DNA of 62,276 nucleotides, the filler included, from Stramenopiles sp. TOSAG23-2 (Eukaryota): NCBI GenBank assembly GCA_900128395.1. It is 25 parts of 25 records of this genome, joined end to end, with 100 filler letters (N's around TTAATTAATTAA, not from the genome) between each part and the next. Parts side by side here need not be neighbours in the genome. Positions count along the whole stretch, not along the records: positions 2,511 to 4,919 come from LT651767.1; 24 more parts are not named here. One strand, written 5' to 3'. The position numbers and the translations under genes are program-made. The notes under the pieces were generated by a model. That model made no database searches. It was given only the letters and a program-made list of their open reading frames with translations, and was not told the DNA's origin. Positions 344 through 17,454 of this stretch are shown one piece after another. Every line of letters starts with the position of its first letter. The first letter of the stretch is position 1.

Positions 344-2011
344 CTACAACTTTGCACTTGTTAAATTATTAACACTTTGACGAATGGCAAGGTAAATTGG
401 ATTTGTTCTTTCTGCATCACCATTTGCAACACCATCGTTACCACCAGTTACAGTATATGCGAAACCTATATTATCATGTGGATTAAACCAAAGAGATGAA
501 CCACCAAATCCTCCCCACCCGTAAACATTCTTCCCATACAAACGTTCTAATACGTGTCTACGATCTTTAAATCCAAATTTTTCACAATGATTGTCAAGTC
601 CACAATTTGTAAATGCCGTATCACCAACAACGCCTAACCAAAATGGATTTACCAATGCCTCATTTCCTCTAGCTGCATTTTGAACTGGATTACCAATTGC
701 ACGTATAGCACCTTCATGACTTATAATTTCACTACCATTTGTATTATTACATGCCATACTCATTGCAGACATAACTTTAGCCAATCCTTTGGCACTTGCA
801 CGTCCAGATGCGGAAGGAGAATCATAATTCATAGAACCAGGAGATTGTGTATAAAAAAAGCCATCTTTCACTTTTTCCCATTCCCATGTTTTACCATGTA
901 TTTCATAGACTTTTTTTTGATCCAAAGACATCGTGTTTATCGATTTGTTTGATGGATTTAGACTTGGGTGTTCTTTACTTGCATCGGAATTGAAAAATTC
1001 CATTCTACTTTTGCCAGTTTTCGACAATGGCTTCTTCTCTGTGGTGGAAGCTGCCGCCATATGCTTTCGTACAATTGGTGGTACCATTAAATTTGCAAAT
1101 CTCCAACCTTTTGGAGGCCCTTGCAAAATTCCTATGGATACCTCTTTTTCCCATCCAAATGGATGTCTGCCACAATATGCCTGTGCATTTAATTTGCTTG
1201 AAACTTCTTCATGTAATATCTCACCAATTGTTCGTCCTTTTGGATCAGCTCTTATTGTAATTTGATTTAATATTAATCCACGACTCAAAGCATGATACAA
1301 TCTTGGTATTTTTCCCTTATCAGGACCACTGCTCCATCGAAATGGCGTTTGCCTTGCAAGAATTGTACTTAAACGCCCTTTTCTATTTTTTTGATCAAAC
1401 ATATCTTCATAGGTTACTGTTTCTTTCAATTCATGCATACCACCATCATGTCTCAATATATCAGCAATTGTTAAATTTTCTTTACCATTTTGAGCAAATT
1501 CTGGCCAGTGTTTGCTTACCTTATCGTCGTAATTTAGCCAACCACGATCTGCGCAAACTGCCATGCATACACTAGCAAGTGCTTTTGTACTACTGAAGAC
1601 AATTTGTACAGTATCTGAATTATAACCTCTTGGTGGTCCAGTATTCATTGTTGCAACTTGATTGGTTCCATAAATGTCAACTACCAGATTACCTTTATGA
1701 AAGATACAACATTGAGAATTTCTTTCAAGTCCTTTTTGAAAGTTTGATTCAAATGCTTTACGTACTGGTTCCCATCCAGGTGCTACATTTCCACCAATAG
1801 TATATCTTGGTTGTTCTTCCCCATTACTAAACGTTCCTTTTCCAGCCTGTGATATTGCATCCTTTAAGTTCAAGTTTGGCATAGCATTGACGTTGCCACT
1901 TTTACTATTTTGTTTTAAAATTTCATCAATAATAGCAGTTTCCTGTTCTGTTGATAAATTATGAAATCCAAGTGTTTTGAATAATGTTTGAAATTGTGCA
2001 GTTGTGGACAT
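344..2011 (-). CDS. Beta-lactamase-family serine hydrolase (class C / esterase-like), probably peroxisomal
   Basis: 555-aa complete ORF. SxxK motif (FSSTK), the family signature LNYDDKVSKHWPEFAQNGKENLTIADILRHDGG, YHAL and GWGGFGGS motifs. C-terminal AKL is PTS1-like. Confidence 0.88.
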   Translation of the reverse strand: MSTTAQFQTLFKTLGFHNLSTEQETAIIDEILKQNSKSGNVNAMPNLNLKDAISQAGKGTFSNGEEQPRYTIGGNVAPGWEPVRKAFESNFQKGLERNSQCCIFHKGNLVVDIYGTNQVATMNTGPPRGYNSDTVQIVFSSTKALASVCMAVCADRGWLNYDDKVSKHWPEFAQNGKENLTIADILRHDGGMHELKETVTYEDMFDQKNRKGRLSTILARQTPFRWSSGPDKGKIPRLYHALSRGLILNQITIRADPKGRTIGEILHEEVSSKLNAQAYCGRHPFGWEKEVSIGILQGPPKGWRFANLMVPPIVRKHMAAASTTEKKPLSKTGKSRMEFFNSDASKEHPSLNPSNKSINTMSLDQKKVYEIHGKTWEWEKVKDGFFYTQSPGSMNYDSPSASGRASAKGLAKVMSAMSMACNNTNGSEIISHEGAIRAIGNPVQNAARGNEALVNPFWLGVVGDTAFTNCGLDNHCEKFGFKDRRHVLERLYGKNVYGWGGFGGSSLWFNPHDNIGFAYTVTGGNDGVANGDAERTNPIYLAIRQSVNNLTSAKL

Positions 2012-2410
2012 TTTTATAAAGATATTCTTTTTCGTTTGTTCGTGTTAGGTTGTCTGTTTTTATTTACGATATATCTATCTATCATCTACGAGAAGGTCTA
2101 AGCGTATATATAGTAAAAGGCAATAGTAATATTAATATGTTGCATATGGTATATATGTGGAAAAGAAGATAAGACACACATCGATTGGTATATATGGAGG
2201 GAGAAAAGAATAAGAAGATAAGACACACATCGACACATCGTAATTCAACTACTGCTGTTTATAATATCCGATAGGAGAAATATAGTAATAGTATATACTG
2301 ATATAAAATATAAGTATAAAATTTATATAGCTGTATATAGTTTAATTTCATATATATTTGATTCCTTTGATTTTTTTTCACCTTCTTCTTGCACTTCTAG
2401 GACGCCCAGC

Positions 2411-2510: not shown

Positions 2511-2678
2511 CTGGTGCTGCCATTTACAATGGATATATGGTATATCATTGAAGATTGTGGTGTCCAAGATGCGCAATGTCTTGGAAATTAGTGGAGTTGG
2601 TGTATTAAAATAATGTGTGTGGTGTGTAAAAAACTAGAAAAATATCTCGACAAACTTATTTTTTTACGTTACATAATT

Positions 2679-4919
2679 TTAAACTTGTTGCATCTCAGCA
2701 TTGGCATTATTATCTCCATTATTATCTCCATTTTTCATATCATGTGCAGCTTTCGCTAACATTTTGGAAGCATTACTTGTTGATTTCCATCCTTGTCTTT
2801 CTGTTTGAATTAATTGTTCAGAGGATGAAATTAAGTCATCAATATTGCGAGGTGCCATCCTCTCTACTTCGGGCAGAGCAAACCACCACATTTTTAACAT
2901 CTCTAAGCTTGATATGGATGCAGAATATCTTTCCATTTTTTTCCCGACGCCTTCAAACTCCGCCCATGCGATAACAGATGAAGTAACAACACTTACAAAT
3001 GCAACCATTGTACCAAGTCCCATGTATGCGAGCACTGCACCAGATAAGCTCCCACAAATTGTAATTATTTGTACAGCTGCACGGAATCTTGAATATGCTG
3101 GAATTCTTTTTTTGTAAAATGCTATGGATTTTTCCAAACGTGTATTAATATACAAGCTGGGTTTTACTGGGGAATGGTGATTATTGTACATTTCTAATTT
3201 TATACTAGGGTTGATTTTTTTTTTATGTAAACATTTTGTGCATATTTTTTCGAAGCAAGTTTTTGATGTTTTCTCAAATTGGCCATGTTTGTATCTTGGA
3301 TTATACCCTGATCTATGAGACTTTGCATAAAATGCTGTGTGTTTCAGATCCGCTGATTCTAAAATGCCTTCTTCTTGTGACTTAATCATGTTTTGTAACA
3401 TTGTTTCTGCGTTACGATTTACGTTACTTCTGCCTTCTCGATATGGACCAGTCCGTGTTCTAAATTCCCATATCTGGGATTCTATGTCTAATGCAGCAGC
3501 CCTTAATTCTTGCCATCTCCATGCTGGGTTAAGATAACCTGTAAGACCAGCTATAATGGTGCCAAATAATGATAGGCACAAAATGCTGGCATTAAACATC
3601 GAGTCTGTGAGTGAAACATTATTGAGACTCTGTAATATTGTAATTGCTACTATTACATTGCCTGAAAGTAGAAGCAGTGCATAAAAAGTTTTTGCTAATA
3701 TTTTATAATTTGTTGCTGTTGCATGAAAATTGTCGCACATGCACCAAGCCCGTCGTAACAATTTTAACGCTTCCATAGAATGACTTTCTGGTAAATTATC
3801 TATCTTTGCCACTTGACTCATAATACGAGAAATTCCATCAACTTCATACAAACTTTCTGAATAACAATTTTCTGCTGTTAAAAGTTCGTATACAGCCAAC
3901 CAATCTTCTGCACTTCTTTTTGAAAACGCTTTATATCGAATAGAATTGTTTTCACCTGTCTCGTCGCTTTTCCGTTCTTTGGAGAAATTATTATTTTGTT
4001 TTTTTTTCCTACTATCGGAAGTATTATTCTTTTTACCGTCAATCGGGTTAACTATAGCGTATTCCTTTTCGACAATGTATTTTAAATGTGATTTTGCCTC
4101 GTTTTCAACCTCATTTGCTTCCTTCAGTAATTTTTGATACCTAGACGTGTGGGCAAATTCACCATTGCGATTGCGTATTGTCAAATTAGCTTTAAAATTG
4201 TTTATTTGTTTGAACAATACGTCCATATTTTTAGCAGGAACCATTTCAAAAAATATATCAGTTAAAAATTTTCCCACATCGTTTACACTTTCATCCTCGC
4301 CAAACGTAACTATGGCTCCCTTCTCTTCTTCAGCGAGTTTTAATGCTTTCCATAAGGGTGCGTTTCTTTGCCTGTTGTCTTTTTTGTTTACTTTATTAGC
4401 AACTTCAAACATTCCACGTAGATATGCTAATGTTGCTGCATCCCAATGTTCACGATGACCAACAATCGTATCATCATTTAAGCAATTATCTACATTTCCT
4501 ATTGTATTCAAATGCTTAAAAAGCCTTTCCCTTGCAGTGCTTACGACAGTTTGTGACAATTTTTCCTTGCTCAAGTCTTCTGCAAGAGATTTTTTTCTAC
4601 CGGAACCATCTTTAGAATCAATATTTCTATCGAACACTTCTGGTACTTTTAATGCTCCAGTTTTCACTGCTAGGTTGGTATAAGGTGTCTGCATCAAACC
4701 CATATGAGATTCCTCGGTCAACGGCCATCGTTCTCTGGCGTCTAATAAAATGACAGGTATATCACGGCGTAATATATTTACTAATCCACGAATTCCTATG
4801 TTTATGTGGTGTGATTGTATAACAACTGATGGTAATGAGGAAGTGCAGCATTCCACAAATGTGTTTTCAAATCGCGTTTTTGGTGCTCTTCCCAGCGTTA
4901 CAACGCCATCTTTGCTTCG
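2679..4919 (-). CDS. Protein with two tandem SLATT (SMODS/SLOG-associating 2TM effector, DUF4231/SLATT_1-like) domains and a probable N-terminal SLOG/LSDAT remnant; 5'-truncated
   Basis: Frame is open to the contig end. Domain 1: AW..DNFHATA..2 TM..NPAWRWQELRAAALDIESQIWEFRTRTGPY. Domain 2: SPVKPSLYINTRLEKSIAFY..2 TM..ERYSASISSLEMLKMWWFALPEVER..LISSSEQLIQTERQGW. N-terminal SVVIQS..ILRRDIPVILLD resembles the end of a SLOG fold. Confidence 0.75.
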   Translation of the reverse strand, partial: RSKDGVVTLGRAPKTRFENTFVECCTSSLPSVVIQSHHINIGIRGLVNILRRDIPVILLDARERWPLTEESHMGLMQTPYTNLAVKTGALKVPEVFDRNIDSKDGSGRKKSLAEDLSKEKLSQTVVSTARERLFKHLNTIGNVDNCLNDDTIVGHREHWDAATLAYLRGMFEVANKVNKKDNRQRNAPLWKALKLAEEEKGAIVTFGEDESVNDVGKFLTDIFFEMVPAKNMDVLFKQINNFKANLTIRNRNGEFAHTSRYQKLLKEANEVENEAKSHLKYIVEKEYAIVNPIDGKKNNTSDSRKKKQNNNFSKERKSDETGENNSIRYKAFSKRSAEDWLAVYELLTAENCYSESLYEVDGISRIMSQVAKIDNLPESHSMEALKLLRRAWCMCDNFHATATNYKILAKTFYALLLLSGNVIVAITILQSLNNVSLTDSMFNASILCLSLFGTIIAGLTGYLNPAWRWQELRAAALDIESQIWEFRTRTGPYREGRSNVNRNAETMLQNMIKSQEEGILESADLKHTAFYAKSHRSGYNPRYKHGQFEKTSKTCFEKICTKCLHKKKINPSIKLEMYNNHHSPVKPSLYINTRLEKSIAFYKKRIPAYSRFRAAVQIITICGSLSGAVLAYMGLGTMVAFVSVVTSSVIAWAEFEGVGKKMERYSASISSLEMLKMWWFALPEVERMAPRNIDDLISSSEQLIQTERQGWKSTSNASKMLAKAAHDMKNGDNNGDNNANAEMQQV

Positions 4920-14714: not shown

Positions 14715-15855
14715 AATGTATGTATTTTGTAATGCTGGTTGTAATCTTTTATTTATAGAACTTTTGCAGTTGTTTACACAATAATAACAATTTACTCTCT
14801 GCAATTTAGGTATATATATTAATCTTGTATAGTTTGGATCTTTTTATTGAGGAGGTTATTAAATGCAGTCCTGGCGTCCTGGCAGTGTTATAATAATAAT
14901 AATAAAAGTAGACTACCAGACTACTATTATATTTAATAGATGATATTATTNNNNNNNNNNNNNNNNNNNNNNNNNNNNNNNNNNNNNNNNNNNNTTAATT
15001 AATTAANNNNNNNNNNNNNNNNNNNNNNNNNNNNNNNNNNNNNNNNNNNNTGCTGTTGTTGTTGCTGTGGGATCTCAGACACGATACCTTTAAATTCTTC
15101 TTGAAATTCTTTTAAAAGCGCATCTACCCCAGATCGTTCGGGCACCGATGGTAATGATTGACGGACAAAGTCAACTTCTTTATACATTTCTACGCAATGC
15201 GATAATGCTTCTCTTAAATTTGCAAGTGATGCACGATATGCTTCAGCTGGTTTTGATAAGCGTAAAGCTCCTACAGCTAAATTTTCATTGGAATCCCCGT
15301 TACTCTGTTTGAAACTTTTACTACTTTCACGTCGTTTAGGTGAAGCTGATGATTTAGGTGGTTGCAATGCTGATTTTATCTTGACACCCTCAGTTTCTTC
15401 CATTTTCTTGATTGGGGAGGACACTTTAACTTCAATAGTTGGTTTATTATTAGTACCTGAACTTGATACTTTTTGACGACCTTCGTCATCAGCAATGGTA
15501 ACAGAGTTTTTCAAATCTTTCTCTTCTACGCCATCCAATATTGAAGTCACATCAACCGATGTATCTACAGATAAATCAACAACAGATATATCGGTTGATA
15601 TATCAGTAGTTGCAACAACTACTTTTTCTACCATTTCCTCCGGCTTCTTCTGAATAATTTTAGCTGCATCAACTTTTCGCATTTCACTTTTCGCGTCATT
15701 TTTACCTTTCTCTTGCACAACGGGGAGTATACCCAACGCACTTAATCTAGCCCTCATATCTGCAACAGCTGCACTTGCTTCTTCCCCGCGTTGCCGTAAT
15801 GCTAATGCGCGTCTTTCTTCTGCAAGACTACGTGTGTTTATTGGCCGTGGTGGTG

Positions 15856-16077
15856 AATCAACAAAAAGAAGATCAAAAGCAAAACAATAATATTAATAAT
15901 GATGCAGACGGAGAAGAAGATTCAGAATCAGAAGAAGAGTCATCATCATCAGAAGATGAAAATGAATTACAAATGTTATTAAGTCTAGCGAAAAAACTGA
16001 ATAAAAAAAAGAAAAGAAAGAAGATGTTGCGTTCCTCAGGTAAATTAAAAAGACGAAGTGCTAGCCATAATGTGTAA
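15856..16077 (+). CDS. 3' end of an acidic/basic low-complexity protein (mirror copy at 16428-16649, minus strand)
   Basis: NQQKEDQKQNNN..EEDSESEEESSSSEDENELQMLLSLAKKLNKKKKRKK..* followed by an AT-rich 3' flank. No credible 5' end. Confidence 0.45.
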   Translation, partial: NQQKEDQKQNNNINNDADGEEDSESEEESSSSEDENELQMLLSLAKKLNKKKKRKKMLRSSGKLKRRSASHNV

Positions 16078-16645
16078 AATAAAAGAAAAAGTGTACAGTA
16101 AAAGAAATTTATATAAATACTCGTATATGAGTTAGAGAATATAATATATACGGGGGGTATATTATATATATATTCTCGGGGGATAAAAATAAATATGTTT
16201 ATCAAACTATTATATCATAATATGCATATTATAATAATATATATCATATATATATATATGATATATATTATTATAATATGCATATTATGATATAATAGTT
16301 TGATAAACATATTTATTTTTATCCCCCGAGAATATATATATAATATACCCCCCGTATATATTATATTCTCTAACTCATATACGAGTATTTATATAAATTT
16401 CTTTTACTGTACACTTTTTCTTTTATTTTACACATTATGGCTAGCACTTCGTCTTTTTAATTTACCTGAGGAACGCAACATCTTCTTTCTTTTCTTTTTT
16501 TTATTCAGTTTTTTCGCTAGACTTAATAACATTTGTAATTCATTTTCATCTTCTGATGATGATGACTCTTCTTCTGATTCTGAATCTTCTTCTCCGTCTG
16601 CATCATTATTAATATTATTGTTTTGCTTTTGATCTTCTTTTTGTT

Positions 16646-17454
16646 GATTCACCACCACGGCCAATAAACACACGTAGTCTTGCAGAAGAAAGACGCGCAT
16701 TAGCATTACGGCAACGCGGGGAAGAAGCAAGTGCAGCTGTTGCAGATATGAGGGCTAGATTAAGTGCATTGGGTATACTCCCCGTTGTGCAAGAGAAAGG
16801 TAAAAACGACGCGAAAAGTGAAATGCGAAAAGTTGATGCAGCTCAAATTATTCAGAAGAAGCCGGAGGAAATGGTAGAAAAAGTAGTTGTTGCAACTACT
16901 GATATATCAACCGATATATCTGTTGTTGATTTATCTGTAGATACATCGGTTGATGTGACTTCAATATTGGATGGCGTAGAAGAGAAAGATTTGAAAAACT
17001 CTGTTACCATTGCTGATGACGAAGGTCGTCAAAAAGTATCAAGTTCAGGTACTAATAATAAACCAACTATTGAAGTTAAAGTGTCCTCCCCAATCAAGAA
17101 AATGGAAGAAACTGAGGGTGTCAAGATAAAATCAGCATTGCAACCACCTAAATCATCAGCTTCACCTAAACGACGTGAAAGTAGTAAAAGTTTCAAACAG
17201 AGTAACGGAGATTCCAATGAAAATTTAGCTGTAGGAGCTTTACGCTTATCAAAACCAGCTGAAGCATATCGTGCATCACTTGCAAATTTAAGAGAAGCAT
17301 TATCGCATTGCGTAGAAATGTATAAAGAAGTTGACTTTGTCCGTCAATCATTACCATCGGTGCCCGAACGATCTGGGGTAGATGCGCTTTTAAAAGAATT
17401 TCAAGAAGAATTTAAAGGTATCGTGTCTGAGATCCCACAGCAACAACAACAGCA
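16646..17454 (+). CDS. Partial protein; C-terminal helix region resembles the WDR62/MAPKBP1 C-terminal coiled coil (mirror copy at 15051-15859, minus strand)
   Basis: Open frame DSPPRPINTRSLAEERR..DMRARLSALGIL..low complexity..YRASLANLREALSHCVEMYKEV..ERSGVDALLKEFQEEF, similar by eye to the MAPKBP1 C-terminus. Coding is likely; the identity is tentative. Confidence 0.45.

Follow-up and report, generated by a model that had tools for sequence, protein, structure and literature searches.

A SLOG-SLATT-SLATT protein of Stramenopiles sp. TOSAG23-2, a candidate nucleotide-gated membrane effector with a TRPM-type head

Can a eukaryote carry, in one polypeptide, both a nucleotide sensor and a membrane pore related to those of bacterial conflict systems? 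The question is raised by an open reading frame in the marine, single-celled Stramenopiles sp. TOSAG23-2 (assembly GCA_900128395.1), in which an original prediction recognized a SLOG domain followed by two SLATT units. The window analyzed here is a stretch of 62,276 nucleotides in which 25 short contigs are joined with spacers, and the frame occupies one of them, contig C7277 (LT651767.1, window positions 2511 to 4919). The SLOG-SLATT-SLATT architecture was borne out by two Pfam SLATT matches and a TRPM-type SLOG fold; the protein is SLATT by profile, SLOG by fold, and not a TRPM channel. It belongs to a large, unstudied protist family, a variant of the predicted bacterial SLOG-SLATT kind with a TRPM-type head. 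SLATT domains have been predicted to act as nucleotide-responsive pores (PMC9503650, PMC7159879), and the MHR1/2 region of TRPM channels is an LSDAT SLOG domain whose fusion to TRP is placed in early eukaryotes (PMC13143021).

The membrane part was identified by profiles from two collections and by a structure model. DUF4231 (Pfam) matched residues 401 to 497 at 38.5 bits (cut-off 24.7), and SLATT_1 matched residues 590 to 711 at 50.9 bits in Pfam (cut-off 26.3) and at 80.5 bits in NCBIfam (cut-off 41), so that both halves have a SLATT-type match; SLATT_3 (Pfam) reached 20.8 bits in the window protein, under its cut-off of 26.3. A hydropathy scan called three hydrophobic segments (residues 407 to 435, 440 to 465, and 614 to 637) and did not call the fourth by itself. 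The model of residues 335 to 720, built from a 62-row alignment (predicted local distance difference test score, pLDDT, of 91), has two hairpins and four helices, each unit consisting of two membrane helices and then a helical cytoplasmic part. The two successive two-helix units that had been predicted were thus recovered, and the motifs quoted for them lie at residues 469 to 493 in the first unit and at residues 590 to 602 and 665 to 686 in the second. A fold search with the membrane part alone returned generic helical bundles only (best Z, 9.3) and no informative solved relative, a null result that does not make the fold new.

The frame runs for 746 codons and a stop with no internal stop and no intron required, and is open at its 5' end, where contig C7277 meets the assembly spacer. 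Uncharacterized homologs had been suspected in databases, and phmmer retrieved 1,574 clusters at 50% identity (819 at 1e-10 and 265 at 1e-30), from the best 150 of which relatives were taken. Searching the genome with these relatives located the missing 5' part, the first 331 codons and with them the N-terminal part of the SLOG domain, on contig G000:C6773 (L020:1520-2512). Contig C6773 is palindromic over its 2,512 bases, with a single position pair at which the two arms disagree. Counted from the first Met, either arm encodes a frame of 331 codons, whose last three residues are the first three of the window frame. The two parts were joined because a relative 89% identical (P0175) spans the junction intact, because they match adjoining positions of one family N-terminal profile (positions 1 to 231 for C6773, E 5e-76; positions 235 to 293 for window residues 9 to 66, E 6e-14), and because a contig obtained in an independent DNA run has a loose end of 24 bases identical to the end of C6773, an overlap short of the 31 bases required for a bridge call. 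The whole protein is therefore about 1,074 amino acids long. The palindrome is probably an amplification or assembly fold-back artifact, since window positions 15051 to 17454 form a second fold-back palindromic contig (2,126 inverted 31-mers). A real head-to-head duplication was considered and rejected, given the single differing position pair, the lack of a spacer between the arms, and the second fold-back contig.

The SLOG call, made weakly from a truncated start that resembled the last strands of the fold, proved right. By the profile match given above, the window frame opens with the final pair of SLOG core strands. The N-terminal SLOG region is present in all 58 relatives of at least 900 amino acids among the best 150; 42 of them built the profile, and all 16 long relatives outside profile building matched it at 8e-11 or better. 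Its fold was read from P0002, a full-length relative 50% identical over the C6773 part, modeled from 53 rows (pLDDT, 86; predicted template modeling score, 0.78). With this model, all top Foldseek matches were TRPM channels (best E, 6e-9), and among 48,161 chains it matched TRPM5 at Z 21.6 (root mean square deviation, 3.1 Å; 280 aligned) and the crystal structure of TRPM2 MHR1/2 (7aov) at Z 20.8 (3.4 Å; 278 aligned). Weaker fold matches were a ciliary LSDAT protein (Z 17.2), LOG (10.8), and the SLOG domain of ThsA (9.4). Because Z was 20.8 to 21.6 versus 9.4, the modeled head is assigned to SLOG of the TRPM/LSDAT type and not of the ThsA type. HHalign of the family head against 12 bacterial LSDAT domains agreed (96.6%, E 6e-10), and language-model features favored LSDAT at 0.89, which is a lead only. 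An LSDAT match thus came from fold and HHalign and not from Pfam, whose LSDAT/SLOG models matched neither the window protein, nor the C6773 part, nor any of 68 relatives; the 53-row profile, run against the sequences of solved structures, likewise gave 0 matches at E up to 10.

Within the soluble region, the expectation of SLOG held for the start (residues 1 to 66) and not for the larger share, residues 67 to 334, which are a helical insertion inside the domain. Structural matches span P0002 residues 43 to 582 with only about 280 aligned, so the SLOG fold is interrupted. In that model, the insertion is all helical (residues ~330 to 550) and structural matches end at residue ~576 to 589; the window protein has its last SLOG strand after the insertion, at about residues 352 to 356. 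The insertion measures about 230 amino acids in P0002, 268 in the window protein, and about 230 to 270 across the family; including the linker, it spans 186 to 651 amino acids, and the distance from SLOG core to first SLATT unit has a median of 288 in 58 relatives. Its identity to three paralogous relatives is 23 to 27%, versus 39 to 59% for the SLOG and SLATT parts. It probably tunes a threshold or binds a partner. In one environmental contig, 7 of the 12 nonsynonymous codon differences sit in one low-complexity loop; synonymous/nonsynonymous counts from such contigs (4/12, 7/6, 1/0, and 0/1) come from single low-depth contigs and were not used. Coordinates of all parts are collected in Table 1.

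Table 1. Parts of the SLOG-SLATT-SLATT gene in the window
Feature	Window position	Strand	Evidence
3' 746 codons and stop of the ~1,074-amino-acid SLOG-insert-SLATT-SLATT gene	2679..4919	-	Frame, relatives, join to C6773
C-terminal part of TRPM/LSDAT-type SLOG core (aa 1-66)	4722..4919	-	Profile E 6e-14; fold of relative P0002
D-x-R-x-R motif (D60, R62, R64) replacing TRPM E/D-G-S-G-R loop	4728..4742	-	R64 at TRPM2 R358 position
Helical insertion (aa 67-334) with low-complexity K/N-rich loop	3918..4721	-	Most variable part; P0002 model
Last SLOG strand, helix, and conserved linker to membrane part (aa 335-385)	3765..3917	-	Structural matches; 51-59% identity to three relatives
First SLATT unit (DUF4231), two membrane helices	3429..3719	-	Pfam 38.5 bits, hydropathy, model
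Second SLATT unit (SLATT_1), two membrane helices rich in small residues	2787..3152	-	Pfam 50.9, NCBIfam 80.5, model

The same domain order occurs in bacteria, which agrees with the kinship first proposed. A tblastn search of plasmids returned three records, two of them LSDAT_prok-DUF4231-SLATT_1 proteins of 625 and 669 amino acids, and eleven further bacterial loci came from GTDB. The membrane part aligned with a bacterial protein of this architecture at 99.9% over 318 columns, next to the 96.6% for SLOG. Bacterial fusions of PF18171, PF14015, and PF18181, such as WP_341472297.1 (Ca. Chlorohelix) and WP_243803067.1 (Hymenobacter), share the domain order and the four membrane helices. In contrast, the protist protein has about 1,000 amino acids rather than 580 to 720, carries the helical insertion in its SLOG domain where two bacterial proteins have about 25 to 55 amino acids between Pfam matches, and is found in eukaryotic hosts and on a separate branch. 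In two membrane-part trees, the family (150 or 32 rows) was set apart from bacteria (11 or 8 rows) by a fully supported branch. Given unrooted trees, a narrow choice of bacteria from which two partial rows were omitted, and few family rows with organism names, a single origin is no more than a possibility. Most of the 11 bacterial loci sit amid housekeeping genes; 22 hand-picked neighbors included four of conflict type in three loci (TPR-S, Roc-COR, nSTAND1, and AlbA_2), and the Chlorohelix gene lies amid toxin-antitoxin genes. In a Sphingobacteriales locus (L031:7181-11867), genes for a TPR-S protein and a leucine-rich repeat (LRR)-Roc-COR protein come after the SLOG-SLATT gene. Prokaryotic SLOG-SLATT fusions were reportedly predicted to be nucleotide-gated pores by Burroughs et al. 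in 2015.

The gene is eukaryotic, as had been proposed. Its GC content (0.36) and third-position GC content (GC3, 0.28) fall inside the ranges of other contigs (0.277 to 0.37) and of five other frames (0.18 to 0.35), its named relatives are eukaryotic, and the tree places the family apart from the bacterial rows rather than among them as a bacterial contaminant. Named members among the 30 clusters looked up were Effrenium voratum, two Picozoa, Cymbomonas tetramitiformis, and MMETSP and EukProt entries; one more was labeled a "Parcubacteria" metagenome-assembled genome (MAG), and Symbiodinium came from a separate search. The family thus covers dinoflagellates, Picozoa, and a green alga, together with haptophyte-rich Atlas clusters. 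Atlas clusters of 920 to 1,080 amino acids with SLATT_1 and DUF4231 were mostly eukaryotic, with Haptophyta commonest and one cluster mixed with Pseudomonadota. LSDAT_prok was annotated in 16% and 64% of members of Atlas clusters of similar proteins, and automatic annotation already joins all three domains in some eukaryote-containing clusters. P0073, a candidate prokaryotic member, was rejected; it nests among other family rows and is probably mis-binned. Viral contigs gave 26 pattern matches and 0 confirmed cases, and nothing in a viral structure library matched at E up to 0.001 (only weaker matches, such as Terrestrivirus at E 0.011, were seen). The stretch or part of it was seen in 20 sequencing runs of 17 studies, 3 of them with at least half its words; runs with a small word share were not counted as habitat evidence. 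Of 30 bins, 15 are covered by seawater polyA assemblies and 6 by oligo-dT assemblies, which is no proof of transcription.

The genome also holds fragments of at least two further paralogs and one distant SLATT_1 end. On G000:C3701 (L022:4829-5074), an initial 51 residues with 100% identity to P0180 run straight into the last 15 residues of the same protein, about 850 codons being absent from the assembly, as in a deletion allele or a chimera. The third paralog (G000:C2939, L021:4468-5275) has a 201-amino-acid SLOG start and then an 82-amino-acid C-terminal end in another frame, with no middle. The distant SLATT_1-only C-terminal fragment is found on L023:2380-3189 and L024:13-585 (G000:C3570 and C4281), which share a neighboring gene and differ in between. 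Two soluble LSDAT_prok SLOG proteins without SLATT matches (L025:1330-2550 and L026:1231-3279; G000:C756 and C3627) were also present, one with a charged low-complexity N terminus and one fused to WD40 repeats. Among relatives elsewhere, P0025, P0133, and P0137 carry, respectively, ankyrin repeats, a C2HC zinc finger, and ubiquitin-like plus Tudor-like domains. P0186 fuses the family SLOG and insert to LRRs and a protein kinase, with no SLATT; it is a single contig and could be a chimera.

Of special interest for the ligand is the cleft of the SLOG head. TRPM channels, and TRPM2 in particular, are the closest solved fold for this head and likewise place the sensor N-terminal to the membrane part. 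In human TRPM2, MHR1/2 binds ADP-ribose (ADPR) and gates the channel, and ADPR phosphates contact R358 (PMC6759353). In TRPM2, R358 lies at +9 and E354 at +5 relative to the proline at the start of the last core strand; in the 53-row family alignment, Arg stands at +9 in 43 rows (R64) and Asp at +5 in 49 (D60), a mapping by ungapped sequence register and not by superposed coordinates. The D-x-R-x-R motif as a whole is conserved as D in 49/53, R in 39/53, and the final R in 43/53. Charged cleft residues of P0002 (D250, E262, D322, R324, and R326) are among the best-kept SLOG positions. At the level of sequence, the retained Arg and Asp favor a nucleotide ligand, which need not be ADPR. Unlike TRPM2, the protein has no NUDT9-H domain, and unlike TRPM channels generally it lacks a six-helix TRP pore domain (no such Pfam match) and has two SLATT hairpins instead.

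Enzymes that could make such a ligand are plentiful in the genome, where TIR_2 gave at least 30 matches over cut-off in frames of 232 to 1,757 amino acids and DUF4062 gave 2. Eight TIR regions were examined, six with C-[IV]-K-E and two with C-R-R-E, motifs whose glutamate we take to be the catalytic position. The proposed genome search for TIR or CD-NTase genes gave matches for TIR and none for CD-NTase: no Mab-21 and no SMODS match was found in this incomplete genome, where the Mab-21 control also gave no match, so the proposed link to CBASS nucleotidyltransferases found no footing. LSDAT_euk also had 0 matches in the genome, and its control likewise gave none. Parallels are found in Thoeris. 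In type VII, a TIR protein (ThsB) makes canonical cyclic ADPR for a SLATT effector, ThsH (10.64898/2025.12.03.692087), so that a SLATT membrane effector and TIR enzymes occur together as they do here, and in type I the SLOG domain of ThsA (SIR2-SLOG) receives a TIR-made signal. Unlike these systems, ThsH is described, in the part of the report available, with a SLATT domain only; the ThsA SLOG is far more distant, as noted above; and in this eukaryote there is no operon or linkage.

From this architecture and homology we infer a ligand, an oligomer, a pore, and a role: a single-chain, oligomeric membrane pore gated by a metabolite of nicotinamide adenine dinucleotide (NAD) and acting as an effector in infection, stress, or death signaling, a reading to which we tentatively assign a probability of about 0.45. 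An NAD+-derived nucleotide, either ADPR or a cyclic ADPR isomer and most plausibly from a host TIR enzyme, would bind the cleft of the cytosolic SLOG domain, where the conserved Arg may hold a phosphate, the part played by R358 in TRPM2. Movement would be relayed through the last SLOG strand and the linker to the first membrane helix, several chains would assemble or open a pore whose lining is formed by small and polar faces of the SLATT helices, and the ion leak would serve infection or stress signaling, up to cell death. The antiviral or cell-death role put forward originally is a putative one.

Several observations weigh against this proposal. The TIR proteins of the genome do not by themselves connect a TIR with this protein, a genome rich in TIRs need not employ this receptor, and contig C7277 carries no neighboring gene, so there is no linkage to TIR. 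No TIR was found among the 22 hand-picked bacterial neighbors, and PADLOC matched 0 of 4 family proteins. In the cleft, the R358 position is Gly in 10 of 12 bacterial rows, so that an Arg there is not needed family-wide. The 12 bacterial rows have the four glycine-rich loops (GGA, GGTxxG, GG, and GSG) that form the cleft lining in TRPM2 and in bacterial LSDAT; the 53 family rows have L-x-x-S, G-x-x-x-C, Q-T, and D-S-R-x-R in their place. TRPM2 R302 has K or R at its counterpart in only 15/53 rows, in a column matched by eye, and no counterpart of Y295 was identified. Other TRPM channels retain the fold and are not known to be gated by ADPR. In Tetrahymena, a SLOG protein contributes structurally to the ciliary tip (10.1101/2024.12.02.626492); it is the P0002 fold match at Z 17.2.

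Much of the family's distribution would also suit a domesticated ligand-gated channel or transporter outside immunity, one that senses redox, NAD status, osmotic, or other conditions as TRPM2 does in animals: the spread among protists is very wide and deep with conserved core motifs, the SLATT parts are 93 to 97% identical to the 89% relative, pieces appear in the seawater polyA and oligo-dT assemblies, and housekeeping genes surround most of the bacterial loci. Such a channel is nonetheless unlikely, as the three or more deeply diverged paralogs, the variable add-on domains, and the fast-changing insertion fit conflict proteins, and the SLATT effectors in the available literature belong to defense systems, with the exception of one Agrobacterium DUF4231 gene required for motility. 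It is also conceivable, though we think it improbable, that the SLOG head is a scaffold that binds no nucleotide, and that the insertion, on sensing a protein, a lipid, or a viral component, gates the SLATT part or brings about its assembly. The lost glycine loops, the absence of LSDAT Pfam matches in 68 relatives, the presence of the insertion in all 58 long relatives, and P0186, in which SLOG and insert sit on LRRs and a kinase instead of SLATT, would follow from this, but the charged cleft residues of P0002 are among the best-kept positions and the insertion is the least conserved part.

A bacterial contaminant, an assembly chimera, or a pseudogene is very improbable and already largely refuted. 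Pointing that way are the break of the gene across two contigs, one of them a fold-back palindrome, the missing middles of two paralogs in the assembly, and the Parcubacteria label of one relative; against this stand a base composition within the range of other contigs and genes, the fully supported branch in both trees, eukaryotic named relatives, an intact 89% relative, and a second fold-back contig showing that the artifact is general.

SLATT proteins have been reported from other settings, including DRT10 (10.64898/2026.04.29.721553). Two cases place SLATT in eukaryotic settings, as here: polinton-like virus SLATT proteins, reported without SLOG (PMC12220804), and the SLATT-annotated EMIHUDRAFT_256646 of Gephyrocapsa huxleyi, which changes sharply in virus-infected cells (10.64898/2026.09.30.755861). 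In the literature as available, no eukaryotic SLOG-SLATT family was found, although Burroughs 2015 and the 2020 paper by Burroughs and Aravind may mention one in text or supplement; the available parts of PMC9812332, PMC13276650, 10.64898/2026.06.15.732245, and 10.1101/2022.09.19.508568 do not describe a eukaryotic SLOG-SLATT-SLATT family. Elsewhere in the window, a neighboring, unrelated contig encodes a beta-lactamase-family serine hydrolase (344 to 2044, minus strand; 97.2 bits). At 40121 to 42459 (plus strand), an MLKL_N four-helix domain (30.6 bits, cut-off 27) is followed by a protein kinase in another frame; the two parts make up an MLKL-like gene that is interrupted by an intron, a frameshift, or an assembly error.

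To our knowledge, protists have many TIR enzymes and few known receivers of their products. The family described here is a concrete, widespread candidate for such a receiver, hidden from standard annotation because Pfam sees only its SLATT halves. One protein thereby bears on two questions: do SLOG-SLATT fusions act as ligand-gated pores at all, and which ligand did the TRPM head bind ancestrally? A more speculative and, in our view, doubtful extension is that many protist lineages run a complete Thoeris-like circuit in which infection leads to a TIR-made, ADPR-type messenger and then to this family as the cell-killing pore, the family being a living counterpart to the origin of TRPM. If that were true, the sensor head would have stayed on a bacterial SLATT pore in some eukaryotes and moved to a TRP pore in others, and, if active in infection, the family would bear on the virus-driven death of marine plankton.

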